From Shigella phage ESh19: DNA of 64,000 nucleotides. Positions 8,936-43,322 of the stretch are shown in pieces. The stretch lies in the sequence record ON528729. The stretch is one strand, 5' to 3'. Under the pieces are notes generated by a model that worked only from the letters and a program-made list of their open reading frames with translations, searched no databases and had not been told where the DNA came from. Positions within the stretch are counted from its first letter, which is position 1; every line of letters starts with the position of its first letter. The translations under genes were made by a program, and so were the position numbers.

Positions 8936-8985
8936 TTCAATATCTCTCTTTGTTGTTTAAAATTACTTAGTGGTTCGTATTCTAA

Positions 8986-9001
8986 GGGGCTTTTCAGCCC
9001 C
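8986..9001 (-). other. GNRA-tetraloop hairpin (GGGGCU-GAAA-AGCCCC on minus transcript) between rIIA and rIIB
   Basis: identical 16-mer recurs at 13847-13862; no U-run follows. Confidence 0.5.
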
Positions 9002-9014
9002 TGTCAAACTATTT

Positions 9015-11387: not shown

Positions 11388-11420
11388 AAGAATATCTCCT
11401 TAGTTGTCGATGTGGCAAAC

Positions 11421-11449
11421 TATATAATTTTATAGATGCCACTGTCAAG
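11421..11449 (-). promoter_or_regulatory. candidate sigma70-type promoter upstream of rIIA overlapping an inverted repeat
   Basis: minus strand TTGACA-N17-TATATA; GTGGCA/TGCCAC inverted repeat (11412-11441) spans spacer and -10. Confidence 0.4.
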
Positions 11450-13826: not shown

Positions 13827-13846
13827 CTTTTTATCTCTCTCAAAGT

Positions 13847-13862
13847 GGGGCTTTTCAGCCCC
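13847..13862 (-). other. GNRA-tetraloop hairpin between Prs-like and Nampt-like genes (identical to 8986-9001)
   Basis: GGGGCTTTTCAGCCCC exact repeat. Confidence 0.5.
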
Positions 13863-13870
13863 TAAAGTTT

Positions 13871-17757: not shown

Positions 17758-17821
17758 AATTATTGCTCCAATAAAAAAGGTGATGTAAGCCTATCAAGAC
17801 CTACACCACCTTGTCAACTAC

Positions 17822-25755: not shown

Positions 25756-26242
25756 TAAGTTTCATGATTTTAGTGATTCTCTTCTCAGCTTCATCATAAG
25801 TCTCTTTTGTAAGAAACTTGATTGCTGCAATGTTCGCATTGTAGAAGAGTCGAAGCTTAGAGTCAATCCTTTTTGTCATGACGTCAAACTTATGTTGTAG
25901 GTTAGCTTCGCCATAAACCAAGCCACCTCGCGTATAGTAAGTCTGGATGATGTAGAAGTCAAACTCTTTTTCACCAAAAGATTCAATATCCTTCTTAATG
26001 TATTCAGAAGATGTTTGATAAGTCATCCAATCACTTTCTTTTGTCACGACTTTACGTCTGGTCTTTCCAGCAACCTTTCTCTTAGTGACGTTATTAAATT
26101 GTTTCTTTCCAATATAATATTGTCCAGTTTTCTTACAGTATACTAAATAGACAAAACCAAAATAGTTAGCGGGGTCAATTTCCCCGCACAGTGAAATCCA
26201 ATGTCCATAAACAGGGCAATTTCCAAATCCTTTAATCTTCAT
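25742..26242 (-). CDS. GIY-YIG-like endonuclease (tentative homing endonuclease)
   Basis: GFVYLVYCKKTGQYYIGKK resembles GIY-(10 aa)-YIG module. Confidence 0.4.
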   Translation of the reverse strand: MKIKGFGNCPVYGHWISLCGEIDPANYFGFVYLVYCKKTGQYYIGKKQFNNVTKRKVAGKTRRKVVTKESDWMTYQTSSEYIKKDIESFGEKEFDFYIIQTYYTRGGLVYGEANLQHKFDVMTKRIDSKLRLFYNANIAAIKFLTKETYDEAEKRITKIMKLNERV

Positions 26243-27334: not shown

Positions 27335-28195
27335 TTACTCGTCGTCAGTTTCGAAATCATCTTCGTCGTCATCATCTGGGTTTGGTAGGTCGTCATCATC
27401 GTCATCACCACCTTTACCTTCATCACCAGAATCTTTTGCATCTTCTTCAGTGATTTCACCGTTATCTTCAACACCCGCAAGGCCAAGCATTGCCAGTTCA
27501 TCTTCATCCAGTTCGGTTTCAGTAGCACCACCAGTACCACCAGTGTAAGGAACCAGAGTATCAATGATGAATTGTTCCTGAATTGGCTTGGTCAGAACGT
27601 TACCTTCAAAAGTGTAGAAGTGAGTCGCCAGAATCACACTACCAAATGAACCGTTACCGACTGCAATATCTGGATGAATTACATCGTAAGTCTTGTCATC
27701 ATCATGTTTGTCAGATTTTGCTGCCTTGATTTTCTTCATAGGCTGCTTAACTGCAACACGTTTACCGTTGATTTCTTCAACCAGCATTACAGGGAAACTC
27801 TGTTTTGCTGACCAAACAGCACCATCTTTGTATGCTGCTGAACGGCTAACCTTCAGGATGTGATAGGTTTCAGCTTCGAATGGAGGCTCACAACCAAACT
27901 TCTCTTCGAAGTCATCTGCATCAACAGCCTCTGTAGTAACTTTATCCCAACCTTCAGGATTCTTCTTAGTCTTGGTGAACTCTTTAAAGAGCTTGTTACC
28001 ATCTTTTGCCAGAATTGAAACGCTGTAGTTACAATCTTTGCCCGGAAAATGCTTATCCACAGATTTACCCTTTTGAGGGCGTGGAATAGTGTTCAGGTAA
28101 TAGAACCAAACATCTTTCAGCAGGTAACGCAGAGTCTCACGTTCTTGACCATTGTACTTCTCTACCGGAGCTTTCATTTTAACAACTTTAGACAT
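27335..28195 (-). CDS. putative ssDNA-binding protein with acidic C-terminal tail
   Basis: C-terminus DDDDDDLPNPDDDDEDDFETDDE; located beside primase-helicase; fold not verifiable. Confidence 0.4.
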   Translation of the reverse strand: MSKVVKMKAPVEKYNGQERETLRYLLKDVWFYYLNTIPRPQKGKSVDKHFPGKDCNYSVSILAKDGNKLFKEFTKTKKNPEGWDKVTTEAVDADDFEEKFGCEPPFEAETYHILKVSRSAAYKDGAVWSAKQSFPVMLVEEINGKRVAVKQPMKKIKAAKSDKHDDDKTYDVIHPDIAVGNGSFGSVILATHFYTFEGNVLTKPIQEQFIIDTLVPYTGGTGGATETELDEDELAMLGLAGVEDNGEITEEDAKDSGDEGKGGDDDDDDLPNPDDDDEDDFETDDE

Positions 28196-28280
28196 TTTAA
28201 TACCTCTTTCTCAAATTAACTTTTAACTCAACTATCAAGGAGTACAATCTTACAGACTTCGTACTCCCTTGTCAAATACT

Positions 28281-32448: not shown

Positions 32449-32872
32449 CTTTAATCTCTCTCATTTTGTTAATAGTAAGTCGTGATAATCTTAAGCTTTC
32501 TTGTGAAGAGAAGTCAAGTCCTTTTTCAGACCGTGGGAAGTAATTTCTGTCCCAAGTATTCTCTGCATCCTGAAGCAGTTGGGATAGACTATCTAAGTCC
32601 GTTCCATTTTGCAACTTATTTTTTAAGGTATCTATCAAAAAGATTGTGTCTTTCGCTTTACGTCTTTCTGAAGATATCTCTTTCATGTGCTCAAATACCG
32701 AGCACTTTAAACCTTCGTCATATCCACTTGATAGTTCTATCTCATGCTGAACATCAACCATTCGACGATGTTGATAAGCATACTCCTTCTGAGCCTCAAT
32801 GTAAAGTGCTTCAACTTTTTCTAAAGCTTGGACAAGGTTATTGATATCTGGGTGAACGTACATCCTCTGCAT
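32432..32872 (-). CDS. hypothetical protein (146 aa)
   Basis: first gene of minus operon facing divergent region. Confidence 0.5.
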   Translation of the reverse strand: MQRMYVHPDINNLVQALEKVEALYIEAQKEYAYQHRRMVDVQHEIELSSGYDEGLKCSVFEHMKEISSERRKAKDTIFLIDTLKNKLQNGTDLDSLSQLLQDAENTWDRNYFPRSEKGLDFSSQESLRLSRLTINKMREIKDENCK

Positions 32873-33131
32873 GATTGCCTCTGTTAAGTATCTATAAAGA
32901 TTTTAATCTCTTATCTTTATGTATGTTATACATATAACTTTAAAGATTTTTAAAAGCTATTAAAAATCTTTTAAGACTTTTAAAGAAACTGTATAGTTAA
33001 TCTATAAAGGGAGTCTATTAAGATAAAACCCACTTCGAAAAGACTAACACCTTGTCAAGTAGTTTGTCAACTTGCTTTTTGAAGAAAATTGCTGTAGGGT
33101 ATTATCCAGAATGATTTGAGAGGGAGTAAAA
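32873..33131. promoter_or_regulatory. AT-rich divergent intergenic control region
   Basis: between divergent operons; repeated TWTAAAGA boxes, palindrome GTTATA-CA-TATAAC (32925-32938), tandem TTGTCAA (33051-33070), TTTGAA-N16-TATTAT upstream of DNA polymerase. Confidence 0.45.
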
Positions 33132-35831
33132 ATGGACAATGTAGATTTCGAAAAATTACATTTGGTTGGTGATACAGAAACTGATGGGTTGCTCCTTGAG
33201 TTTACAAAAGCACACGTAATGGCTTTCGCAGACTATAAAGATGACAGTGATGAACCTGCTGTGTGGGTTTTCACTGATGAGCCTATTCTTGGTCACAAGT
33301 ACACAAAATACATCAAAGGTGGTCTGCGTGAAGGTGTTGAGTTTGCACTGAAAGCTAAACGTCTTTGCATACATAATGGTTTAGGTTATGACTGGTGGGT
33401 GTTTAATCACATTGCACCTGACCTGTGGAACTTTGAGAATCCTAAGTGCAAGCCTTGGAGTGACTTCTTTCAGGATTCACTTATCCAATCTCGCGTACAG
33501 TGGATGGATAGACCTACACCAAAAGGTTACAAAGGTGCTCATGGTTTGGCTGCATGGGGTGCTCGTGTTGGTGTTCGTAAACCAGAGATTGAAGAGTGGG
33601 GTGTCTGGAATGCAGAGATTCTTACTCGTGTTGTAGAAGATATTAAGATTAACGCCAAAACTAAACGTGCTCTTGATAATGAGTACCTCAAGCTTAAGAA
33701 GTGTGGTGTTGACACTTATGAAACCTACATGCGAGCTAAAGAAACATCTTTCTGGATGAGTCAGCAAGCTATCAACGGTTGGAAAGCTGATGTAGAACTT
33801 ATGCAGTTCCACGTTAAAGAGCTTGACAAGTTAACTAATGAGTTGGCTGCTGAGGTTGAACCACACCTTCCACCAACTATTAAGACAAAAGGTAAAGTCA
33901 CAGGTGAAGAATTTGCCAAGTCTTGGAATGAGTATGTAGATACATTTGGTCACGTTGACGGTTTAAAAAGGATTACCAAGTACCCTAAGACAAAGTATCG
34001 TGAACAGATGCGTGAAGGTGAGTTGAAGCAGTACCCTATCAAGCCATATGGTAAGCCAACCACAAAGATTTTTAATGTTGAGAAACGCAACTGCTACACT
34101 CCAACTAACACGGTCACAAAAGAAGAGTACCCTGAAGGTTTTGTAGCAATGAAAGATGCTCGTGCAGTTTGTAATGAACTGAATGAGAAGATTGGCAAGA
34201 AGTGTAAAGATTGGAAGCCAGTTAAGACTGTGAAAACTGTGAAGTACTACAACGTTCACGTTGTTAATCACTTTGAGTTAGAGTCTAGTCGCTACACTGG
34301 TTTGATTGATGCACCATTCACACCAATTGAGTTTGAAGTTTCACGAATGACTCAGGTAGCTGTGGTGAAGGATTACTTAAAATCCGTTGGCTGGATTCCT
34401 GATGATTGGAACTATAAAAAAGATTCTGACGGTCGTCCTATCAAGGTTTGCAGGTTCAAAGACAACAAAAAGATGATTCGCAAACATCCTAAGTGGGATG
34501 AGATGGTTGAACGTTGTGGGTTGAACTATATTGAGCATGAAGGTGTCTACTACATCGAGCATAACTGGTCTGTTAAGAAGTACACAGATGTGCTTGAGCC
34601 TTGCTTGATTAGGACTTCACCAAAGCTTACAGAATCTTCTTATGATACAATCGAAGGTGAGCTTGGACAGAAGATTGCGAAGTACTATACTTTGATGCAC
34701 CGACGCAGGACTATCGAGAACTCAAAGGATGATGAGAAAGGTTGGCTGAACCAGATTCGTCCAGATGGTCGTTTGAGTGCAGGTGCAATGGTGTTTGGTA
34801 CTTCTACTGGACGTATGACTCAGTATGGTATTGTGAACGTACCTTCTGGTGCTGCTGTGTACGGTGAGCCAATGAGGGCAGTGTGGATTTGTGAAGAGGG
34901 AACCAACGTAGTATCTGTTGATATGAACTCTGCACAGCTTGTACTACTCTGTAACTTCATGGGTGATAAAGATTTCACCAAAGCGGTAACAGAGGGTAAA
35001 GAAGAGATTGAGTTTGTTCGTCAAGAGGATGGAAGATACTACTGTAAACACTTTGACCAGTATCTGAATCCAGAGATTGACAAGTATCTGCGTTACGACT
35101 CTGAAAACGATTTGTACGTAGTTTACTCAGGGACTGATGCTCATACCCTGAACAGTATCTACTTCAGCCTTAATGATGAGCAAGATATCTTGACTTGTCG
35201 TGCTACTCAGGATGAGAATCTTCTTCATGAGATTAGCAAGGGACGTAAGAAAGCTAAGAATGGTATCTATGCCCTGTTGTTCGGTGCAGGTGATGAGAAG
35301 TTTGCTAAAACAATTAAAGCAGCAACTACTCAGGAAGGTGCATTGACTAAGCAGACTTACTTTGTGCGTTTACCGAAGATTAAGAAACTGTTAGACAACT
35401 TGGAAGCTGATTTCAAAGCAACTAAGAAAGCACTTGAAGAGGTGTTTGGTAAGACTGCTGCAATAGCTAAAGGTGGATTTGTTCAGGTTGCTGGGGCGTG
35501 GTTGTGGTGTAAATCTCCACACAAACTCTTGAACTATCTGTTGATGGGTTCAGAAGCACAAGTTCAGAATGAAGCAATCAACCTTGCTTGTCGTCGTATG
35601 ATTGATGAAGGTTTGATGAAACTAAATGGTCGTAAGCCAGCTATCGGTGCTCGTTTACTTTGTGCTTACCACGACGAAACAAGCTGGGAATGCCCAGAAA
35701 GCATGACAGCAGAAGTTAAGGCAGTAACTGACTGGTATTATGGTCAAGCTTCTAAAAACTTGGGACTGAAGAAGGATACTTTGGTAACGGGTACTGGTAA
35801 GGTTGGTAAATCGTGGCTTGAAGTCCACTAA
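33132..35831 (+). CDS. DNA polymerase, family A, with 3'-5' exonuclease domain
   Basis: Exo I DTETDG near N-terminus; Pol A motif C LLCAYHDETSWE; 899 aa; SD GAGGGAG. Confidence 0.85.
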   Translation: MDNVDFEKLHLVGDTETDGLLLEFTKAHVMAFADYKDDSDEPAVWVFTDEPILGHKYTKYIKGGLREGVEFALKAKRLCIHNGLGYDWWVFNHIAPDLWNFENPKCKPWSDFFQDSLIQSRVQWMDRPTPKGYKGAHGLAAWGARVGVRKPEIEEWGVWNAEILTRVVEDIKINAKTKRALDNEYLKLKKCGVDTYETYMRAKETSFWMSQQAINGWKADVELMQFHVKELDKLTNELAAEVEPHLPPTIKTKGKVTGEEFAKSWNEYVDTFGHVDGLKRITKYPKTKYREQMREGELKQYPIKPYGKPTTKIFNVEKRNCYTPTNTVTKEEYPEGFVAMKDARAVCNELNEKIGKKCKDWKPVKTVKTVKYYNVHVVNHFELESSRYTGLIDAPFTPIEFEVSRMTQVAVVKDYLKSVGWIPDDWNYKKDSDGRPIKVCRFKDNKKMIRKHPKWDEMVERCGLNYIEHEGVYYIEHNWSVKKYTDVLEPCLIRTSPKLTESSYDTIEGELGQKIAKYYTLMHRRRTIENSKDDEKGWLNQIRPDGRLSAGAMVFGTSTGRMTQYGIVNVPSGAAVYGEPMRAVWICEEGTNVVSVDMNSAQLVLLCNFMGDKDFTKAVTEGKEEIEFVRQEDGRYYCKHFDQYLNPEIDKYLRYDSENDLYVVYSGTDAHTLNSIYFSLNDEQDILTCRATQDENLLHEISKGRKKAKNGIYALLFGAGDEKFAKTIKAATTQEGALTKQTYFVRLPKIKKLLDNLEADFKATKKALEEVFGKTAAIAKGGFVQVAGAWLWCKSPHKLLNYLLMGSEAQVQNEAINLACRRMIDEGLMKLNGRKPAIGARLLCAYHDETSWECPESMTAEVKAVTDWYYGQASKNLGLKKDTLVTGTGKVGKSWLEVH

Positions 35832-35892
35832 TAGTGTTGACAAGGTGCTCATGGAAGAGTACCTTATACTATATATTATATAGGAGACTTGT

Positions 35893-36093
35893 ATGACTAT
35901 TTCAGAAATTGAAGTTCAACTGCAATGTGCTGGATATTCTCAAAGTGAGATTGAGGCTATGTGCATCATCATTTGCAGTAGCCATAAGCACCTCAAGCTT
36001 TCTAATGAAAATCTTAGCAAGGTTGATATTTTTATTGCTGGAGGTAAGATTATCAAGGATAAGACAGGATACCTTAAAGGTGAACGTCTATGA
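35893..36093 (+). CDS. hypothetical protein (66 aa)
   Basis: ORF with AGGAGA SD. Confidence 0.45.
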   Translation: MTISEIEVQLQCAGYSQSEIEAMCIIICSSHKHLKLSNENLSKVDIFIAGGKIIKDKTGYLKGERL

Positions 36094-36299
36094 GCCATCG
36101 TGGAAGAACTCATCTCGCTATGATGCAAGGTGCTTCAAAAGAGACTATCAAGAATCGGAAGAAAACTCTTTTTGACAGAATGAATAGACTCATTGATAAT
36201 GCGAGCCTACCTAACTCTGAAAAGGTTTTCTTGAAAGGGAATCTGAAGAGTATTGCACAGGAACTTATTGACATTGAATTTTGGAGACACCAAAAATGA
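36090..36299 (+). CDS. hypothetical protein (69 aa)
   Basis: ORF, ATGA-coupled. Confidence 0.45.
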   Translation: MSHRGRTHLAMMQGASKETIKNRKKTLFDRMNRLIDNASLPNSEKVFLKGNLKSIAQELIDIEFWRHQK

Positions 36300-36547
36300 G
36301 CAATAAAGAGCAAGAAGCTTTAGCAATCTTCAAGAGCGAAGACAAATCAATAGCTTTTGTCTCAGAGGCTTGGTGCAGGGATTTGGGGTATGATTGGTAT
36401 ATCTTCTTATGCGCTAAGAAAGATGTTAAACCAGTTGATGAAACCCGATTCAAAGAACTGTATACTATCTGCCAAGAGGGTTATGAAGAACATTACGAAG
36501 GTTCTTTGAATCCTGTAAATTCAAAAGCTTCAGATTTATTTTATTGA
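36296..36547 (+). CDS. hypothetical protein (83 aa from ATG 36296)
   Basis: ATGA overlap with upstream stop. Confidence 0.4.
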   Translation: MSNKEQEALAIFKSEDKSIAFVSEAWCRDLGYDWYIFLCAKKDVKPVDETRFKELYTICQEGYEEHYEGSLNPVNSKASDLFY

Positions 36548-36557
36548 GAGGTTTAAA

Positions 36558-36803
36558 ATGTTAAAATTATTGATACCAGCTTTAGCAGTCCTACTGGTTG
36601 GGTGTAACCCTTCTTATGAGAATAAGGATGCTTCTTACAGACTTCCTCCAGAAATGCAAGACTGCAAGATTTATAAGCTTAATGGTGATGCCATTAGCAG
36701 GGATGTTATTGTAGTTCGCTGCCCAAATTCTCAGACGACAACTTCTTACAAGTATGGGAAGAATAGTCAGTCACACGCCACAGTTTTTGATGAGGGATAT
36801 TGA
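36558..36803 (+). CDS. putative lipoprotein (81 aa)
   Basis: signal MLKLLIPALAVLLVGC with lipobox. Confidence 0.5.
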   Translation: MLKLLIPALAVLLVGCNPSYENKDASYRLPPEMQDCKIYKLNGDAISRDVIVVRCPNSQTTTSYKYGKNSQSHATVFDEGY

Positions 36804-36804
36804 T

Positions 36805-37011
36805 ATGCAGGTTCTGGTAAACTTTATCTATAAGTATGAAAACATCTTCAGCACTATGACTGTAGCTCAACGCAATCCAGTTATTCCCCGAGAAGGGGAG
36901 ACTGTTGAGATTAATGATTGGAACTACAGAGTTGAAGAGGTCAAGCATAAACTTAAAGATGGTTATGACCACCAAGTTGTAAATGTGTATTTAAAAGGTA
37001 AGTGGCAATGA
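36805..37011 (+). CDS. hypothetical protein (68 aa from ATG 36805)
   Basis: SD GAGGGA 7 nt upstream. Confidence 0.4.
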   Translation: MQVLVNFIYKYENIFSTMTVAQRNPVIPREGETVEINDWNYRVEEVKHKLKDGYDHQVVNVYLKGKWQ

Positions 37012-37250
37012 GTAGAGAAGACCAGTTAATTGATATGCAAAATGACAAAAATGAGGCAATATCCATAATCCCAATATTGTGGGGGCATGACTGCACATAT
37101 GGTAACTATCTGTGTGTTTGTGAAGACCGAAACATTGAACCCGTAAGCCGTGATGAGTATCAAAAACACTTAAAGGCTCTTGACAATTACTTCACAGATA
37201 ATAAATGCTCTCAGATTTCAAGTGAGGTCTTGCATGAAGATTTTTATTAA
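37008..37250 (+). CDS. hypothetical protein (80 aa from ATG 37008)
   Basis: ATGA overlap with upstream stop; track start is GTG. Confidence 0.4.
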   Translation: MSREDQLIDMQNDKNEAISIIPILWGHDCTYGNYLCVCEDRNIEPVSRDEYQKHLKALDNYFTDNKCSQISSEVLHEDFY

Positions 37251-37331
37251 AGTTATTGATGAAGATTTTGGAGGGTGCTCTTGGCACTCATTTTTCACAA
37301 AAGGTTGTCTAGCTTGTGAGGCACGTAATAA

Positions 37332-38432
37332 ATGACAATTCTGTACAAACAAAACAAAGATGGTTCTTTCAACGTCTGGTCATGTGTTGCTGTAGGTGAT
37401 AAAGTCGTCACAACTTATGGTAAAGAAAATGGCAAGATGATGTTTGAAGAGTACACAGCAGAACCTAAGAACATCGGTAAAAAGAATGAGCGTAATGCTG
37501 AACAGCAAGCTCTCTTTGAAGTTGCTGCTAAGTACAAGAAGCAGGTTGACCGTAAAGGATATGCTTACACAAAATCTGAAGCAGAGAATGTTGAGAAGGT
37601 TGGTGTACAGCTTGCTCAGGATGCTTCCAAGATAAGTCACAAGAAGTATCTGGTATTCCCTGCCGATGCTCAACCTAAACTTGATGGTGTTCGTTGCAGG
37701 ATTTCAAGAGATGCTGACTCAGAAAGTTTTACGGCATATTCTCGTGAGAACACGGTATACAACATTCCTGTAGAGTTGATTCCTGATGTTCTTCTTATGC
37801 TGAAACTGCACAAAGATGTTGAGGATTTCGACGGGGAGATTTATGCTCATGGTTGGGACTTGGAAGATATTGTATCTATGATTAAGAATGCTGACAATCC
37901 AGACCGTCACCTTCTTAAATTCTACTGGTATGATATCTGTGACAAGACTAAATCTTGGCCTGAGCGTCGTGAAGTTATTGATAATTCACCAATCGTTGAA
38001 CTCGGTGATGCTTGCAGGGTTGTACCTGTTCAGACAATCCGTGTTAACTCTTGGGAAGAATTTGATAATGCTCATGACAACTGGGTTAAACTCAAGTTTG
38101 AAGGGGCAATGTATCGGTCAATCTCACCAGATTCGTTCTATGAGTGTGGTCATCGCTCTTACTTCCTGATTAAGCACAAGAAGATGCACACACAGGAATT
38201 TAAAGTAACTGGTGTAAAGACTGATAAACGTGGTCATGGTAAGTTCGTTGTAGAGACTCTTCCTAACGTCTTTGTAGATGTTTCATGGAAAACTACACAC
38301 GAGAAGAAAAAGTATCTTGCTGAACATCCTGAAGAGTTTATCGGGAAGCCTTTAACGGTTCAGTTCCAGAAGATGACTCGTAAGGGTTCTTTACAGTTCC
38401 CTGTTGGGCTAGTAATTCGAGATTATGAATAG
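37332..38432 (+). CDS. ATP-dependent DNA ligase
   Basis: adenylation motif I PKLDGVRCR (KxDG); 366 aa. Confidence 0.8.
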   Translation: MTILYKQNKDGSFNVWSCVAVGDKVVTTYGKENGKMMFEEYTAEPKNIGKKNERNAEQQALFEVAAKYKKQVDRKGYAYTKSEAENVEKVGVQLAQDASKISHKKYLVFPADAQPKLDGVRCRISRDADSESFTAYSRENTVYNIPVELIPDVLLMLKLHKDVEDFDGEIYAHGWDLEDIVSMIKNADNPDRHLLKFYWYDICDKTKSWPERREVIDNSPIVELGDACRVVPVQTIRVNSWEEFDNAHDNWVKLKFEGAMYRSISPDSFYECGHRSYFLIKHKKMHTQEFKVTGVKTDKRGHGKFVVETLPNVFVDVSWKTTHEKKKYLAEHPEEFIGKPLTVQFQKMTRKGSLQFPVGLVIRDYE

Positions 38433-38440
38433 AGGTTAGT

Positions 38441-38590
38441 ATGTTTAGCACAATTATCCTGTTTGTTTTTGTTGTTTTATCATTATCTTACTTCATAAGT
38501 AAACTTTTAAGCATAACATACAAAGCAGCCTTAGCCCTTACTCTGTTGTCATTTGCAGTAAATGCAGCAGTTAGAATGTATTTAGTATAA
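38441..38590 (+). CDS. possible small membrane protein (49 aa; below ORF-track cutoff)
   Basis: hand-translated MFSTIILFVFVVLSLSYFISKLLSITYKAALALTLLSFAVNAAVRMYLV; SD GAGG 6 nt upstream. Confidence 0.3.
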   Translation: MFSTIILFVFVVLSLSYFISKLLSITYKAALALTLLSFAVNAAVRMYLV

Positions 38591-38595
38591 AATTG

Positions 38596-38656
38596 TTGAC
38601 ATGAGTAACCTGACGGGTATACTACCTATATAGAAAATTATATAGGAACCCGTCAG
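38596..38656 (+). promoter_or_regulatory. sigma70-type promoter with nested inverted repeats (operator-like)
   Basis: TTGACA(38596-38601)-N16-TATACT(38618-38623); outer IR CTGACGGGT/ACCCGTCAG (38610-38618, 38648-38656), inner palindrome CCTATATA/TATATAGG. Confidence 0.5.
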
Positions 38657-38673
38657 AAACCTCGGAGGTGTTT

Positions 38674-39054
38674 ATGAAAAAGTTACTTGTTGGTGTCATT
38701 GCTATTGGTATGAGTTTTAGTGCAGCAGCTATGAAGATGCCTGAAGCAAACTTTAATGGTGTTGCTTTAGAATCTTGTAAGATTGTACAGAAAATCGCTT
38801 CAAATGCTGGAGAGTTGACTAAACCGTTGTCTGCTCAGACTGTTCAAGAAATGACTGATAAGATGGTTGACTACAACTACCATTTTATGGGAGATTACTA
38901 TGACAGATTAGCAGATGAGATGGTCACTCAGAACGTTGACCTTCTTGATAGCAAAGGTATTGAGACTGTAGAAGATGTGAAAGACAACTTTATGCGTGAG
39001 TCTTTCAAAGGTGTTCAATACTTTATTGAAAATCGTCACTGCATGGGTTTATAA
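38674..39054 (+). CDS. secreted protein of unknown function (126 aa)
   Basis: signal peptide MKKLLVGVIAIGMSFSAAA; start at ATG 38674 after GGAGG (track start is GTG). Confidence 0.55.
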   Translation: MKKLLVGVIAIGMSFSAAAMKMPEANFNGVALESCKIVQKIASNAGELTKPLSAQTVQEMTDKMVDYNYHFMGDYYDRLADEMVTQNVDLLDSKGIETVEDVKDNFMRESFKGVQYFIENRHCMGL

Positions 39055-39056
39055 TC

Positions 39057-39260
39057 ATGAAGAAGAACATCTGTAGAACAGACTATGGTGAAGTGGTCGA
39101 TGATGACGGAGTAGTTATTTACAGAGTTTGGGCTAATGATTTTGCAACCGTTGTAGAGTCTTTAGATAACTACATCAATGGGACTCGTGAAAACGTCAGA
39201 GCAACTAATCTTGATTCGTTAATAGACACTTCTCGAAAACGGAGAAAGAAAGATGAATGA
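39057..39260 (+). CDS. hypothetical protein (67 aa)
   Basis: ORF. Confidence 0.4.
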   Translation: MKKNICRTDYGEVVDDDGVVIYRVWANDFATVVESLDNYINGTRENVRATNLDSLIDTSRKRRKKDE

Positions 39261-39552
39261 AGTCTTTGACCCATATGCACCTCAAGATTCTTGGGAGGCT
39301 GATAGAGAGGCTGAAATGGAGAGTTATGTCTGTCCAATGGATATAGAAGAGATGAAAGACTTTGTATCTTTCAGATTCTCTAAAGAGATTGAGAAGCTAA
39401 AACTTTCTCAGGCTCAAGTAGCAACTGTTTGTGAAATCTCACAGAGTCGTGTGTCAAATATCATTAACGACCCTCAAAAGATTTCTTTAGAGTACATGCT
39501 TAATGCTTGTACAAAACTTGGTGTAAATTTTAACTTAAGGCTGGCAGATTAA
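39253..39552 (+). CDS. putative HTH DNA-binding protein (99 aa)
   Basis: LSQAQVATVCEISQSRVSNIIN resembles XRE-type helix-turn-helix. Confidence 0.4.
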   Translation: MNEVFDPYAPQDSWEADREAEMESYVCPMDIEEMKDFVSFRFSKEIEKLKLSQAQVATVCEISQSRVSNIINDPQKISLEYMLNACTKLGVNFNLRLAD

Positions 39553-39553
39553 T

Positions 39554-39913
39554 ATGAAACGTGAAAATGCAATCTTTAACGATAACTTTGCAATTGGCTT
39601 CTATGGTAAACCAACTCCAGCAGAGAAACTTTATGGTAATGCAATTCTGGAGACCTTGAAAGAGGTTTACACAACTGGTGGTATGAAGCATACTGAAGCA
39701 AACCGTGTAAGAGGTTATATGGCAATTGGCTCTGCAATCTCTAACATCAAACTTGAAACTACAAGTGCTAAAAAGGTGCGAGACCACTTCATCAAAGAGT
39801 TGTCAGAGAACCTAGATGGTGTTGAAGTCAAGGCTGTCTGGTTAGATGTTGATGGTCACAACTACACAACTTTTGTGTTTAAAAATGAGGATATCAAATG
39901 TCTCTTCCCTTAA
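39554..39913 (+). CDS. hypothetical protein (119 aa)
   Basis: ORF. Confidence 0.45.
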   Translation: MKRENAIFNDNFAIGFYGKPTPAEKLYGNAILETLKEVYTTGGMKHTEANRVRGYMAIGSAISNIKLETTSAKKVRDHFIKELSENLDGVEVKAVWLDVDGHNYTTFVFKNEDIKCLFP

Positions 39914-40401
39914 AACTTGATTTATACTTTGGTTACAGTGTATTACAGGGTAGCATACTTTCACTACCAAAGTCAGATTACCGTTGTGATTTAGGTTCTG
40001 TGAAACGTGCATCACACTTCAATAACAACATTTTAGGCTTGCAGACACTTCACAGGTGGCTTGAGGAAGATGGACGGTTGAATGAGTATCTTCACCAACT
40101 CGAACTAGCCAAAGAAGAAGGTCATATGGGCTATGAGATGCTTCCACATCTTTACAAACCTGTAAGCCCAAATGAGATTCGTTGGAATGAGCAAGCTGTT
40201 GAGAGCTATAATAAATTTAATATAACTATTGGCTCCAGAGCTTGGAAGGAGTATATGAAACTCCGTGAAATCATCATACAGACTATTGGAAAGCGTGTAG
40301 CAAAAGGTCTTGTTTATGATGAAAAGGTTGACTGGAATACACAAAAGTGTATAAAATTCTTCAAGTACGATAATGACAAGGATACTTTTGTAGAGGTTTA
40401 A
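39898..40401 (+). CDS. hypothetical protein (167 aa)
   Basis: ORF with GAGGA SD. Confidence 0.45.
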   Translation: MSLPLKLDLYFGYSVLQGSILSLPKSDYRCDLGSVKRASHFNNNILGLQTLHRWLEEDGRLNEYLHQLELAKEEGHMGYEMLPHLYKPVSPNEIRWNEQAVESYNKFNITIGSRAWKEYMKLREIIIQTIGKRVAKGLVYDEKVDWNTQKCIKFFKYDNDKDTFVEV

Positions 40402-40402
40402 C

Positions 40403-40918
40403 ATGAAAATTGGAATTACCCTTTGCCAGCCTGAAGCAGAGTTCTTGAAATCAATGTTGTCTGAGCATATGAAAGCTACAAATCATACTGAGAAGGCATT
40501 CTTGATTGATACCAACTATGATGCAGGAACTATTGAGTTCATCGATGAAGACACTGCTGACTCTCTGTGTGTTCTCCCTGCTCATCTGTTCACTCCAGAA
40601 TTACGTGATAGTCGCTCTATTGAAGTTAATATGGAGCCAAGTATTGAACTGTACTCAGATACACAGTATCCAAGAAGTTTTAAAGCATTGCTAAACATCT
40701 TCATAGCTGATATTGTAGAAATTGTTAAACAAACTGAAGGTGGTCATGTAGTGACTGCTGAGTACGAACAAGGTACTATTAAGTTGACAGGTGATTTTGG
40801 TTCTATGAGTTTCTTAGACTTTGTTCCAAAACACTTCGAAGATTTCTTGTCAAGTGAAGTTGATGACCTTGACTTCATACTCAAATTTGAACGCACTTTT
40901 AAGGTAAACAAAAAATGA
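40403..40918 (+). CDS. hypothetical acidic protein (171 aa)
   Basis: ORF with AGAGG SD. Confidence 0.45.
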   Translation: MKIGITLCQPEAEFLKSMLSEHMKATNHTEKAFLIDTNYDAGTIEFIDEDTADSLCVLPAHLFTPELRDSRSIEVNMEPSIELYSDTQYPRSFKALLNIFIADIVEIVKQTEGGHVVTAEYEQGTIKLTGDFGSMSFLDFVPKHFEDFLSSEVDDLDFILKFERTFKVNKK

Positions 40919-41187
40919 AAATCTTAAGCGGAGTATCACAGTGTTACATGAATGATGGTGAGCCAGTTAAATGCTGCCATTGTGGAGGTGAGAACTTCCA
41001 AGGTGAAGTTTCAGAGATTGTCTCTGGCAATATCGCTGAAGAGTACACCCGTTGCTGTGGATGTGGAAAGATTTTATCTTTTTGGGCTTATGGAAGTTAT
41101 GAACCACAACCTCACCTTATTTACCATCCAAACAGGATTGTGAAGCGTGTTCTGAATTGGTTCATTATCAAAGGATTTACAAAATGA
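40915..41187 (+). CDS. zinc-ribbon protein (90 aa)
   Basis: CCHCGG ... CCGCGK. Confidence 0.45.
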   Translation: MKILSGVSQCYMNDGEPVKCCHCGGENFQGEVSEIVSGNIAEEYTRCCGCGKILSFWAYGSYEPQPHLIYHPNRIVKRVLNWFIIKGFTK

Positions 41188-41729
41188 TTAAGTTAATTTT
41201 TGCAAGTGGTATTAACGGGGAGTTTGGCACAGCTACTGGAATGCCTTGGCCTCGTAATAAACAAGATATGGCAGAGTTTAAGAAGCAGACTATTAACCAG
41301 TTAGTCTTGATGGGTAGCGAAACTTGGAAGACTCTTGGGAGCAAGCCTTTGCCAAACCGTGATAATATTGTCTTGACAAACTCTCTTGACTTTTATGGTC
41401 TGGATTTTAAAGATGACTCTCATTGTAAAGCAAGAGTTAAGCCTGAAGCTTTTGGGGCTTTCCTGAAGTATATTGATAGTTCTATTGATGAAGATGTTTT
41501 AGTAATCGGTGGAGCCAATATCTTAATCTCAGCTTTGCCGTATGCTGACGTAGTTTTCCACAGTGTTATTAAGGAAGTTACTGAAGAGGCTACTGTCAAG
41601 CTACCTTATGAGGGTTTCTTCCAGTACTTGTATGACACAGAGTTATTTGCTAAAGTACAGTCCAAACCTTCAGAAGATAAGTCTGTGGTTTTTGATACCT
41701 ATGTTCCACAAGTAAGAGGACGTTTCTAA
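41184..41729 (+). CDS. dihydrofolate reductase
   Basis: GMPWP, LVLMGSETWKTLG, PNRDNIVLT, VIGGANIL; start set to ATG 41184 (ATGA overlap). Confidence 0.8.
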   Translation: MIKLIFASGINGEFGTATGMPWPRNKQDMAEFKKQTINQLVLMGSETWKTLGSKPLPNRDNIVLTNSLDFYGLDFKDDSHCKARVKPEAFGAFLKYIDSSIDEDVLVIGGANILISALPYADVVFHSVIKEVTEEATVKLPYEGFFQYLYDTELFAKVQSKPSEDKSVVFDTYVPQVRGRF

Positions 41730-41730
41730 T

Positions 41731-42630
41731 ATGTCACAAGCAGATGTAAGCTACAAAGCTATTTTAAACCACGTTTTATCAGTTGGTGAGTTGCGTAATA
41801 CCCGAACTGGCTCAGTGATTTCAACATTTGCTCCACCTGAGTTTCGTTTTGATATGCGTAGTGGATTTCCATTAATCACCTCAAAACAAACATTTATGCG
41901 TCAAGTTCTCGGTGAAGCATTATGGTTTATGAACGGAGAAAATCAACTAGGGCATTTGCGTTACAGAACTTGGGGAGAGAACGACGGAGAGCGTTGGACT
42001 ATCTGGACAGATGATTTTAAACGTTGGTTGAAAACAACCTATGCTACAGAGAATGATTGGCTGGAGGACGCTGGAGGAAGAATCTACGGAGTCCAATGGA
42101 GAGCCTACGAAGGTCATGGTGGCGTTGTTGTAGACCAGTTGAGTAATCTTGTAGAGAAGATGAGAAAGTCTCCTACAGACCGTTACATGCTCGTTAACGC
42201 ATGGAATGCAGCAGATATCTCAAGTAACTCTATGGCATTAGCACCTTGTCATGTACTTTTTCAGATTTATATCTCGAACACTAATGAGGTTGATTTGAAA
42301 TGGTATCAGCGCTCTTGTGATACATTCTTAGGGTTACCGTTTAACATTGCTTCCTATGCCTTTATCTTGGAAGTGTTGTGTAAACTGACGGGATATACAC
42401 CGCGATATCTGATAGGGACTTACGGTGATACTCAAATCTATCAGAACCATATGTCGCAGGTTTTTCAGCTTCTTGGCAATGAAGAGTTTCCAGCACCTAA
42501 GTTTGAAATTCATCAAGATTTGAAGTCTCTTGAAGACTTGAGACATATGACAGCAGATGACTTCCTAGGTGGGTTGAAAGGGTATAAACATGCTGGTAAG
42601 ATTGAAGCTCCCTTGTCAGTAGGTAAGTAG
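41731..42630 (+). CDS. thyA: thymidylate synthase
   Basis: LAPCHVLFQIY, YQRSCDTFLGLPFNIASYA active-site blocks. Confidence 0.9.
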   Translation: MSQADVSYKAILNHVLSVGELRNTRTGSVISTFAPPEFRFDMRSGFPLITSKQTFMRQVLGEALWFMNGENQLGHLRYRTWGENDGERWTIWTDDFKRWLKTTYATENDWLEDAGGRIYGVQWRAYEGHGGVVVDQLSNLVEKMRKSPTDRYMLVNAWNAADISSNSMALAPCHVLFQIYISNTNEVDLKWYQRSCDTFLGLPFNIASYAFILEVLCKLTGYTPRYLIGTYGDTQIYQNHMSQVFQLLGNEEFPAPKFEIHQDLKSLEDLRHMTADDFLGGLKGYKHAGKIEAPLSVGK

Positions 42631-42641
42631 ATACAAAAAAA

Positions 42642-42661
42642 GGCTCCTTTTTACGGGAGCC
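42642..42661. terminator. bidirectional terminator at convergence of plus and minus operons
   Basis: GGCTCC-TTTTTAC-GGGAGCC flanked by A7 upstream and T-rich downstream. Confidence 0.6.
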
Positions 42662-42667
42662 TTAGCA

Positions 42668-43042
42668 TTATTTCTTTTTAGCATTCTGTGTATTTTGTTC
42701 GGTAATTGCTTGTAAAGCTGATACAGACTGTGCTAAGTTGTTCACACTATCTGAGAATTTATCAAGGGTTTTGGTCAACTTAGCGTTCTCCCCTTTAACG
42801 TTCTCTAACTGCACTTTCTGGTTTTCCATCCCTAACTGAAGGAGTTTCATATCAGACTGTAAATCACGAATAGCTGAATAGTTACCTTTTGAGTAACCAT
42901 CCAACTGTTGTAACTTTGTGTTGATAGAAACTTCTTGCTTTCCATCAGAGACCTGCATCGTAGTGTACATACCAATTACACTGAAAATACCTACAACGAT
43001 TGCACCAATATTATTCTTAAAAGCATCTTCAAGCCACTTCAT
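42668..43042 (-). CDS. membrane protein, N-terminal TM + coiled coil (124 aa)
   Basis: TM IGAIVVGIFSVIGMYTT then heptad-rich region. Confidence 0.5.
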   Translation of the reverse strand: MKWLEDAFKNNIGAIVVGIFSVIGMYTTMQVSDGKQEVSINTKLQQLDGYSKGNYSAIRDLQSDMKLLQLGMENQKVQLENVKGENAKLTKTLDKFSDSVNNLAQSVSALQAITEQNTQNAKKK

Positions 43043-43236: not shown

Positions 43237-43322
43237 TTAATCACCTTACTTCTTGAGCCAAGATGGTGAGAATACCTACTAAGAAATATTAACACCATCT
43301 TGACAGTTAGTCAACAAGGTAA

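Follow-up and report, generated by a model that had tools for sequence, protein, structure and literature searches.

Introduction

The promoter-early stem-loop (PeSL) cassettes of T4-like phages (Arbiol et al. 2010, PMC2839356; Comeau et al. 2014, PMC4122927) are the closest described counterparts of the locus analysed here, a pair of intergenic gaps in Shigella phage ESh19 (sequence record ON528729; the 64,000 nucleotides analysed are called the window) which share an element of the form TATACTA...ATTATATAGGA ahead of two plus-strand genes. In PeSLs the stem-loop mostly lies between the -35 and -10 hexamers or over the -10, the stem includes G-T pairs, and a Shine-Dalgarno (SD) sequence and an ATG form the 3' end. 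Promoter and terminator activities have been measured with reporters, and the cassettes have been given a role in modular shuffling by recombination, which also yields mini-circles (PMC2839356; PMC4122927); in the reporter test, the PeSL stem-loop terminates transcription (PMC2839356).

Felix O1 has been described with host-type promoters (TTGACA-N-TATAGT/TATACT/TATAGG) and with 57-bp and 39-bp intergenic direct repeats such as CTTTACATGGGGCTTAAAAG...TAAGCCCCAGATAAAGAGCTTTAC, its temporal regulation being termed not understood; that account omits the promoters behind the polymerase and ligase genes, and hairpins embedded in promoters (Whichard et al. 2010, PMC3185647). In the literature searched, no paper links PeSLs to Felix O1-like phages. 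The window represents a Felix O1-like myovirus of the Ounavirinae (Mooglevirus), and over the region that holds both gaps (35000-39500) its identity is 98.3% to Citrobacter phage BSwM KMM4 (Ounavirinae/Mooglevirus) and 94-98% to Shigella phage Sf14 and Citrobacter phage Mordin. Some 260 Ounavirinae genomes in GenBank gave matches to this part of the window. The complete KMM4 genome of 86,911 bp served as the target of whole-genome searches.

The two gaps, site 1 behind the DNA polymerase A gene (polA) and site 2 behind the DNA ligase gene and a short open reading frame (ORF), had been taken in the original prediction for possible carriers of a phage-specific promoter element or operator. We consider it probable instead that both are compact PeSL-type promoter/stem-loop cassettes internal to a replication module, and that the string which they share stems from common descent and recombination.

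Two cassettes in the replication module

Sites 1 and 2 lie in a co-directional plus-strand module for replication and nucleotide metabolism that runs from polA (from 33132) to the thymidylate synthase gene (~42630), and they are the only intergenic gaps of at least 35 nt within it (35832-35892 and 38591-38667). The gene context was taken from ORFs and from the annotation of relatives, and all features described for the two sites are on the plus strand. In both cases 5 nt separate the upstream stop codon (that of polA at site 1, that of the short ORF at site 2) from a TTGACA hexamer, after which the cassettes continue in one order, with a GC-rich stem-loop and the -10 hexamer first and then an AT-rich leader that leads up to the SD sequence and the ATG. 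The strings and coordinates that the original prediction gave for a motif directly ahead of SD and start codon are exact, and its view that the genes at both sites are promoter-driven is very probably right, with putative promoters directly upstream of both plus-strand genes.

At site 1, polA (33132-35831) ends with a stop codon at 35829-35831, and TTGACA at 35837-35842 is invariant in the 29 related genomes in which the cassette was found, including Felix O1, where it lies between ORF95 and ORF94. The comparison set for this site consisted of 30 loci around polA homologues from IMG/VR, plus GenBank records. A stem-loop of 8 pairs, one of them G-U, follows immediately (35843-35864, AGGTGCTC-atggaa-GAGTACCT; as RNA, AGGUGCUC-auggaa-GAGUACCU) and fills the promoter spacer, its 3' arm overlapping the probable -10, TACCTT (35860-35865). 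This hexamer stands 17 nt from the -35, and its T1, A2 and T6 are invariant in the 29 genomes. The original prediction had noted that TATACT at site 1 is 22 nt from TTGACA, and this spacing is as it described. Because TACCTT reads as a -10 at 17 nt, however, the puzzle is most simply solved by taking TACCTT, not TATACT, as the likely -10. Transcription would then start near 35871-35873, and we read the shared element of site 1 (TATACTATATATTATATAGGAG, 35865-35886) as discriminator, AT-rich leader and SD (AGGAG, 35882-35886) of a 66-residue gene of unknown function (phrog_4230, 35893-36093, ATG at 35893), which would be driven by this promoter.

Across the 29 genomes, whose consensus is TTGACAAGGTGCTCATGGAAGAGTACCTTATACTATATCTTATATAGGAGG, site 1 has a mean pairwise identity of 92.9%, compared to 75.6% for the adjacent 300 nt at the 3' end of polA, in which third codon positions alone reach 54.7%. 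Within the cassette, the block of -35, stem-loop and -10 reaches 97.9%, while the TATA element with the SD reaches 84.7%. Only one loop position of the hairpin varies, and the variable positions of the cassette concentrate in the motif of the original prediction, with the sixth base of TATACT (35870) being A in 10 of the 29 genomes. A divergent relative (L026 in our numbering of loci), the polA of which is 64% identical, has TTGACA-N17-TATCTT at the same place after the polA stop and no TATA-rich element; its spacer holds a different hairpin, GAUGCACA-agga-UGUGUAUC, at the equivalent place. The region 35832-35895 folds with -18.9 kcal/mol (z-score -3.4), and the hairpin is more stable in the sense than in the antisense direction (-11.2 vs. 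-7.1 kcal/mol).

Other readings of site 1 were tried and rejected. A hairpin in the 5' untranslated region (UAUAUAGG/CUUGUAUG), by which the SD and AUG would be masked, lacks significance (z -0.5). If TACCTT is the -10, TATACT would occupy about -7 to -2, upstream of the start, which does not suit a sigma-dependent pause element in the initial transcript. The stretch GGTGCTCA before TATACT could be taken for a MotA box, but the hairpin arm explains it better, TATACT is not conserved as a -10, and no MotA/AsiA-like gene is known in Felix O1-like phages (PMC3185647).

Site 2 follows the ligase gene (37332-38432) and the short ORF (49 residues, phrog_22006, 38441-38590). This ORF is annotated in KMM4, and not in Mordin or Sf14. 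Here the good TTGACA-N16-TATACT promoter with two nested inverted repeats of the original prediction is confirmed as a near-consensus sigma-70 sequence with such repeats: the -35 (TTGACA, 38596-38601) and the -10 (TATACT, 38618-38623; 16-nt spacing) match the consensus at 11 of 12 positions, and TTGACA and GTATACT are invariant in the five distinct variants compared (the window, Mordin, HP1, L028/ESh21 and L016). The start is expected near 38630-38631, and the shared element of site 2 (TATACTACCTATATAGAAAATTATATAGGA, 38618-38647) would provide the -10, the start region and the AT-rich leader. The SD (GGAGG, 38664-38668) and the ATG (38674) of a 126-residue gene lie beyond the element, the AGGA of which is not a working SD in the window but serves as one where the cassette is of the Moogle type. 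The 20 nt upstream of the -35 are 85% AT, and most other cassettes of the window have 70-85% there.

A bipartite hairpin of 17 pairs with an asymmetric internal loop (38610-38656; -22.3 kcal/mol, z -6.6) encloses the -10 and the start site of site 2. By an inverted-repeat check it is made up of an outer stem, CTGACGGGT/ACCCGTCAG (38610-38618 and 38648-38656), and an inner stem, CCTATATA/TATATAGG (38625-38632 and 38639-38646). The 5' arm precedes the -10 and the start, so that the hairpin would form only in read-through RNA, and the transcript predicted from the site's own promoter is unstructured (z +0.4). The outer stem changes its sequence yet stays paired (CTGACGGGT/ACCCGTCAG, TTAGTGGGT/ACCCACTAG and ATAGCAAGT/ACTTGCTAT): its 9 pairs are 100% paired in the five variants, with changes on both sides at 5 of them, whereas slid controls are 31-43% paired and the covariation score was not equalled by any of 500 shuffles. 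This covariation indicates selection on pairing. The inner TATA stem shows no covariation, and 3 of its pairs are broken in some of the five variants. A pattern scan of IMG/VR for further variants returned three contigs, none of them new to the set.

The same layout across the window

Is this arrangement peculiar to the two sites? All intergenic gaps of the window with a sigma-70-like promoter (n = 13) were viewed in gene-sense orientation, and at 12 of these promoters a hairpin starts 0-8 nt after the -35, directly behind the hexamer (offset 0) in 10 of the 12 cassettes, and fills the spacer or brackets the -10. A z-score of -2.5 or lower is found at 9 of the 13 promoters, as against 6% of 200 random 58-nt windows and 8.6% of 58 intragenic promoter-like matches; a minimum free energy of -14.6 kcal/mol or lower is reached by 10 of 13, vs. 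9.5% of the random windows and 6.9% of the intragenic matches. The sense fold is the stabler one in 8 of 12 cassettes, and 16 of the 142 pairs are G-U. Strand bias and G-U pairs together point to structure at the RNA level in the direction of transcription. In the cassette upstream of a 286-residue gene (27335-28195, minus strand) the layout is kept in relatives, some of which show compensatory and wobble changes, and two divergent genomes have entirely different stems in the same layout.

Breakpoints between related genomes fall at the edges of both cassettes, at the -35 and at the SD. When the window is aligned with a Moogle-type relative (L003), homology stops at 38602, just past the -35 of site 2, and begins again with the SD at 38664; the relative holds 1,955 bp with two cassettes in between. 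With a Felix-type relative (L005), homology stops at 35886, at the SD of site 1, and resumes at 36089, which marks the 66-residue gene as an indel bounded by the cassette. This gene is absent from Felix-type relatives, where the cassette joins the next gene directly. In L016, a 525-bp insertion abuts the -35 of site 1 (35836-35840). An HNH homing-endonuclease gene is present between the polA stop and the cassette, again abutting the -35, in many relatives (loci L004, L008-L017, L019, L027 and L029-L032; Felix O1 ORF95) and not in the window. The match to polA extends over ~800 nt more in five loci (L019-L023), which suggests that polA itself holds an insertion there.

The cassettes of the window are also related to one another in patches, pairs of them having strings of 12-53 nt in common. 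GTTGACAAGGTG is found both at site 1 and in the cassette at 17758, the 12-mer AAAATTATATAG both at site 2 and in the cassette upstream of an rIIA-like gene at 11388, and exact strings of 22-53 nt are common to members of a four-copy family (574-2076).

Behind the ligase gene, Felix- and Moogle-type genomes have two cassettes, P-B and P-C, 0.2-1.9 kb apart, compared to one in the window; in Felix O1 itself both lie between ORF88 (ligase) and ORF87. P-B consists of TTGACA-N17-TATACT flanked by GGTGAGTA/TACTCACC. P-C, by which we mean the promoter cassette upstream of the homologue of the 126-residue gene, consists of TTGACA-N17-TATTTT followed by TATACTCAA...ACAAAAT.... In Moogle, Sf18 and KPS64, P-C reads ...TATACTCAAATATATACAAAATTTTATATAGGAGGTAGTTATG (listed also as ...TTTTATATAGGAGGTAGTTATG), with TATAGGAGG as the working SD, while the matching stretch of Felix-type genomes is TAATATAACTTTGAGG and lacks the 11-nt string common to sites 1 and 2. 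Site 1 and the Moogle-type P-C align over their full length (TTGACAAG...TTATACT...ATATA...TTATATAGGAG...TATG), which suggests common descent rather than coincidence. The Felix O1 promoter P102 (TTGACC-N17-TATACT) was considered as a homologue of site 2 and rejected, its locus being a different one, namely the end of the primase/helicase gene.

Most Felix-type loci have, behind P-B (TTGACA-N17-TATACT/TATGCT), a conserved stretch of ~100-200 nt that bears no annotation and is absent from the window (11270-11390 in L005; 3950-4110, minus strand, in L043, which is Felix O1). It has a near-perfect hairpin of 19 pairs, GCAUCACUUAAGAGUCUUU-uaa-GAGGGUUUUUAAGUGAUGU, before the next cassette, and in several Felix-type genomes no ORF fits between P-B and the next promoter. 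This stretch may represent a small non-coding RNA or else a site of processing.

Individual cassettes and neighbouring genes

The other cassettes of the window are on the minus strand. The four-copy family comprises intergenic cassettes of ~90 nt flanking small ORFs (574-657, 1171-1262, 1521-1611 and 1993-2076) and reads (G/C)CTTTACA-T-GGGG(C/T)TTA...TAAGCCCC-AGATAAAGAGCTTTAC...CCTAAACTGGAG...ATG; its 3' part (CCTAAACTGGAGAATCT) recurs in the 2458-2960 gap. Upstream of a 370-residue gene that comes after the rIIA-like gene (790 residues, HATPase_c_3) lies TTGACA-GGGGCTgaaaAGCCCC-TTAGAAT (8936-9014), whose 17-nt hairpin AGGGGCTGAAAAGCCCC is found again in the 13827-13870 gap (minus strand). The rIIA-like gene itself is preceded by TTGACA-GTGGCA..TATAGT..TGCCAC with a nested CTATA/TATAG stem (11388-11449). 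At 17758-17821 a terminator-like stem followed by TTTTTTATT stands directly after TTGACA, and in the cassettes at 28196-28280 and 43237-43322 the stems bracket the -10 (z -3.2 and -5.7, respectively).

The sole promoter-like site without a hairpin (z +0.7) is the very AT-rich divergent region of 259 nt between the minus-strand block and polA (32873-33131), in which no clear sigma-70 promoter for polA was found. Tandem TTGACA boxes occur on its minus-sense strand (TTGACAAACTACTTGACAAGGTG), together with several copies of motifs like AAAGATTTTTAA and AAAATCTTTTAAGACTTTTAAAG. An Rfam scan of 32500-43000 on both strands returned nothing at E <= 1.

Downstream of site 2, the 126-residue gene (38674-39054, phrog_4332) encodes a protein with a signal-peptide-like N-terminus. 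A 67-residue gene separates it from the third gene of the operon (39253-39552), which encodes a 99-residue regulator of the Cro/C1 type with a helix-turn-helix (HTH) domain (HTH_3, PF01381, E 2.8e-08); its homologue is annotated as a transcriptional regulator in Mordin and Sf14. The genes for dihydrofolate reductase and then thymidylate synthase close the module, at the end of which the terminator scan placed a bidirectional terminator (42640-42663, both strands).

Comparison with PeSLs and proposed mode of action

The likeness to PeSLs, as far as nucleotide sequence can reveal it, extends to a sigma-70-like promoter with a spacing of ~17 nt fused to a stable stem-loop that overlaps the -10 or lies between it and the -35, to G-U (G-T) pairs in the stems, to an SD and start codon at the 3' end of a cassette that fills the intergenic gap, and to many copies per genome with patchwork sharing and with edges that coincide with indels or replacements between relatives. 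The four-copy family resembles the classical arrangement in which PeSLs flank ORFans, and it corresponds to the 57-bp direct repeats of Felix O1 (PMC3185647). Unlike in PeSLs, the stems are of mixed sequence and not of the Gn-loop-Cn kind. The phage is a Felix O1-like member of the Ounavirinae of ~87 kb, not a member of the T4-like group for which PeSLs were defined, and because it is not T4-like we file the cassettes as PeSL-like, an extension to another subfamily. The cassettes are also similar to intrinsic terminators overlapping the next promoter, with a GC-rich hairpin right after the stop codon; the cassette at 17758-17821 and the L016 version of site 2 are terminator look-alikes.

We propose that host sigma-70 RNA polymerase would initiate at ~35871-35873 and ~38630-38631. 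At site 1 the stem-loop sits right after the -35, inside the 17-nt spacer and with its 3' arm over TACCTT, while at site 2 it begins 8 nt after the -35 and brackets both TATACT and the predicted start site. Transcripts from the local starts would carry short, open, AU-rich leaders that may favour initiation, promoter escape and ribosome loading. Read-through RNA, in contrast, would carry both arms of the hairpin, which could then attenuate transcription, stabilise 3' ends or offer a site for processing, and in this way insulate the transcription units from one another. The hairpins are under selection; these modes of action are suggested by their likeness to PeSLs. The shared TATACTA...ATTATATAGGA would belong to two related cassettes as their -10/discriminator, leader and (ancestral) SD, alike through common descent and patchwork recombination among cassettes rather than through dedicated recognition.

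Several observations weigh against this interpretation. The site 2 hairpin is followed by AAACC, not by a U-tract, and is for that reason not a canonical intrinsic terminator; the terminator scan made no call there, nor for the site 1 hairpin, the tail of which is UUAUACUAU. TACCTT is a weak -10 with 3 of 6 consensus matches, and site 1 lacks an AT-rich tract 5' of its -35 (60% AT vs. 61% for the genome). Both cassettes lie in a conserved replication module, whereas PeSLs are mostly found in hyperplastic early or ORFan regions. The identity of the 11-mer is unlikely by chance (P ~0.0015), and the 11-mer may have a function. Finally, no mapping of transcription starts or 3' ends and no RNA-seq for Ounavirinae was found in the searchable literature.

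A broader proposal is that PeSL-like cassettes are a genome-wide organising principle of Felix O1-like phages, the first outside the T4-like group. Their role would go further than termination. As the 5' arm in most cassettes begins directly behind the -35, ahead of the start, the leader would exist in two isoforms, closed in a hairpin and processed, attenuated or stabilised in read-through RNA, and open and AU-rich when made from the local start. This would amount to a built-in switch between upstream-driven and autonomous expression, and the cassettes would at the same time be recombination hot spots for gene shuffling, a role suggested by the breakpoints at sites 1 and 2. We offer this wider view tentatively, as a possibility of low probability.

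Alternative explanations

Phage T7 combines promoters inside a co-directional gene block with a conserved RNase III-site hairpin in the intergenic RNA, and the hairpin lies downstream of the promoter, hence on all transcripts. By analogy, the site 2 hairpin and others without a U-tract might be sites for RNase III or another endonuclease, where read-through RNA would be trimmed to a 5' end near the local start and a protective 3' hairpin left on the upstream mRNA. The 17-pair bipartite stem with its asymmetric internal loop and fold of -22.3 kcal/mol, the AAACC tail of site 2 and the selection on pairing are all consistent with such processing, as is the position of the 5' arm upstream of the start, which would let read-through RNA alone fold and which distinguishes these cassettes from the T7 pairs. 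The L016 version of site 2, however, has a longer stem (14 pairs) followed by UUUU, as in a terminator, and the PeSL stem-loop behaved as a terminator in the reporter test (PMC2839356). We regard processing as a variant of the cassette interpretation that deserves some credence, if only a minor share of it.

Could the two sites be independent ordinary promoters, and the string in common a meaningless coincidence of a generic TATACT, an AT-rich leader and AGGA? TATATA-type runs are self-complementary, and palindromes arise easily from them. Moreover, the 11-mer with at most one mismatch is not enriched window-wide (3 found vs. 1.28 expected), and among the loci examined its exact form is limited to the window/KMM4 lineage, site 1 reading ATTGTATAGGA in Mordin, Sf14, Moogle and L028. 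On the other hand, the composite TATACTA-N(0-15)-ATTATATAGGA occurs twice in the window, compared to 0.00 expected from 100 shuffles, a common substring of at least 11 nt arises in just ~0.15% of dinucleotide-preserving shuffles of the two gaps, and the full-length alignment of site 1 with the Moogle-type P-C argues for descent. The similarity of the two elements exceeds chance and is a two-copy feature, and we consider coincidence rather unlikely. The sole other near-match to the 11-mer, ATTATATTGGA (26108-26118, minus strand), adjoins a strong terminator-like hairpin, GCGGGGAAATTGACCCCGC (26187-26169); this region (26098-26190, minus strand) may be another terminator/promoter junction.

A slightly less credible explanation is that the AT-rich palindromes (CCTATATA-N6-TATATAGG at site 2, CTATATA-N1-TATATAG at site 1) are operators through which the 99-residue HTH protein represses or autoregulates both promoters. 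The palindromes overlap the predicted starts, a typical position for a repressor, the shared 11-mer is improbable by chance, and the gene of the protein lies in the site 2 operon and is syntenic in all Felix- and Moogle-type relatives, which makes it a candidate regulator of the promoters at both sites. The CTATATA/TATATAG arms, however, are separated by 1 nt at site 1 but by 6 nt at site 2, and a difference of 5 bp, roughly half a turn of the helix, is a misfit to one dimeric geometry. No covariation is seen in the inner stem at site 2, which is disrupted in L028 and L016, and Felix-type homologues of site 2 have no palindrome (TATACTCAATGTAATACAAAATTTAATATAAC) in spite of a nearly invariant recognition helix, ISQ[SA]RVSNI. 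Positions inside the motif at site 1 vary freely among relatives as well, 35875 being A in 4 of the 29 genomes and 35878 being A in 15 and G in 14. With a recognition helix this constant, no covariation signal between regulator and palindrome is possible, so the comparison of these two speaks only weakly against an operator. On these grounds we think the operator suggested by the original prediction unlikely.

The other suggestion of the original prediction, a phage-specific middle or late promoter used by host polymerase with a phage factor and independently of the -35, would account for the 22 nt between TTGACA and TATACT at site 1, which is too far for standard sigma-70, and it would fit a phage whose temporal control has been called not understood (PMC3185647). 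The original prediction had asked for a genome-wide search and had counted against itself a motif found only twice and with no associated transcription start. As to copy number, this is how the search turned out, exact and degenerate versions of the motif occurring nowhere but at sites 1 and 2, both in the window and in the complete 86.9-kb KMM4 genome; the two sites lie in the replication/nucleotide-metabolism module. The motif does not constitute a promoter class, because there are just two copies and neither is upstream of late genes, be they structural or lysis genes. Nor does the element itself appear to be what is recognised: TTGACA, needless if the -35 played no part, is invariant at both sites; the conserved -10 of site 1 is the one with canonical 17-nt spacing, while the T6 of TATACT gives way to A in a third of the genomes (10 of 29); the exact 11-mer lacks conservation, even among close relatives; and the register is unequal, TATATAGGA beginning 6 nt past TATACT at site 1 and 15 nt past it at site 2. 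A phage-specific promoter class is highly improbable, indeed essentially excluded by copy number and location, and the element is probably neither a promoter special to the phage nor an operator.

Combinations of a promoter with an AT-rich unwinding element occur at replication origins such as T4 oriF and oriG and the T7 primary origin, but the AT-rich run here is only ~20 bp, nothing else supports an origin, and the idea was rejected.

Significance

The finding as first noted matters little, as it comes down to two internal host-type promoters with related leaders and yields no new promoter class or operator. What carries more weight is that nearly every intergenic promoter of this Felix O1-like phage has a selected RNA hairpin just after the -35. 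The overall picture is one of ordinary regulation with a genome-wide architecture of modest interest. For annotation and engineering it is useful that the likely -10 of the promoter behind polA has been corrected, and the analysis supplies concrete candidate promoters and RNA elements for a group of phages used in Salmonella typing and biocontrol. For the biology of these viruses, it extends the PeSL concept, in which promoter/terminator cassettes insulate genes and mediate modular shuffling, beyond the T4-like phages.

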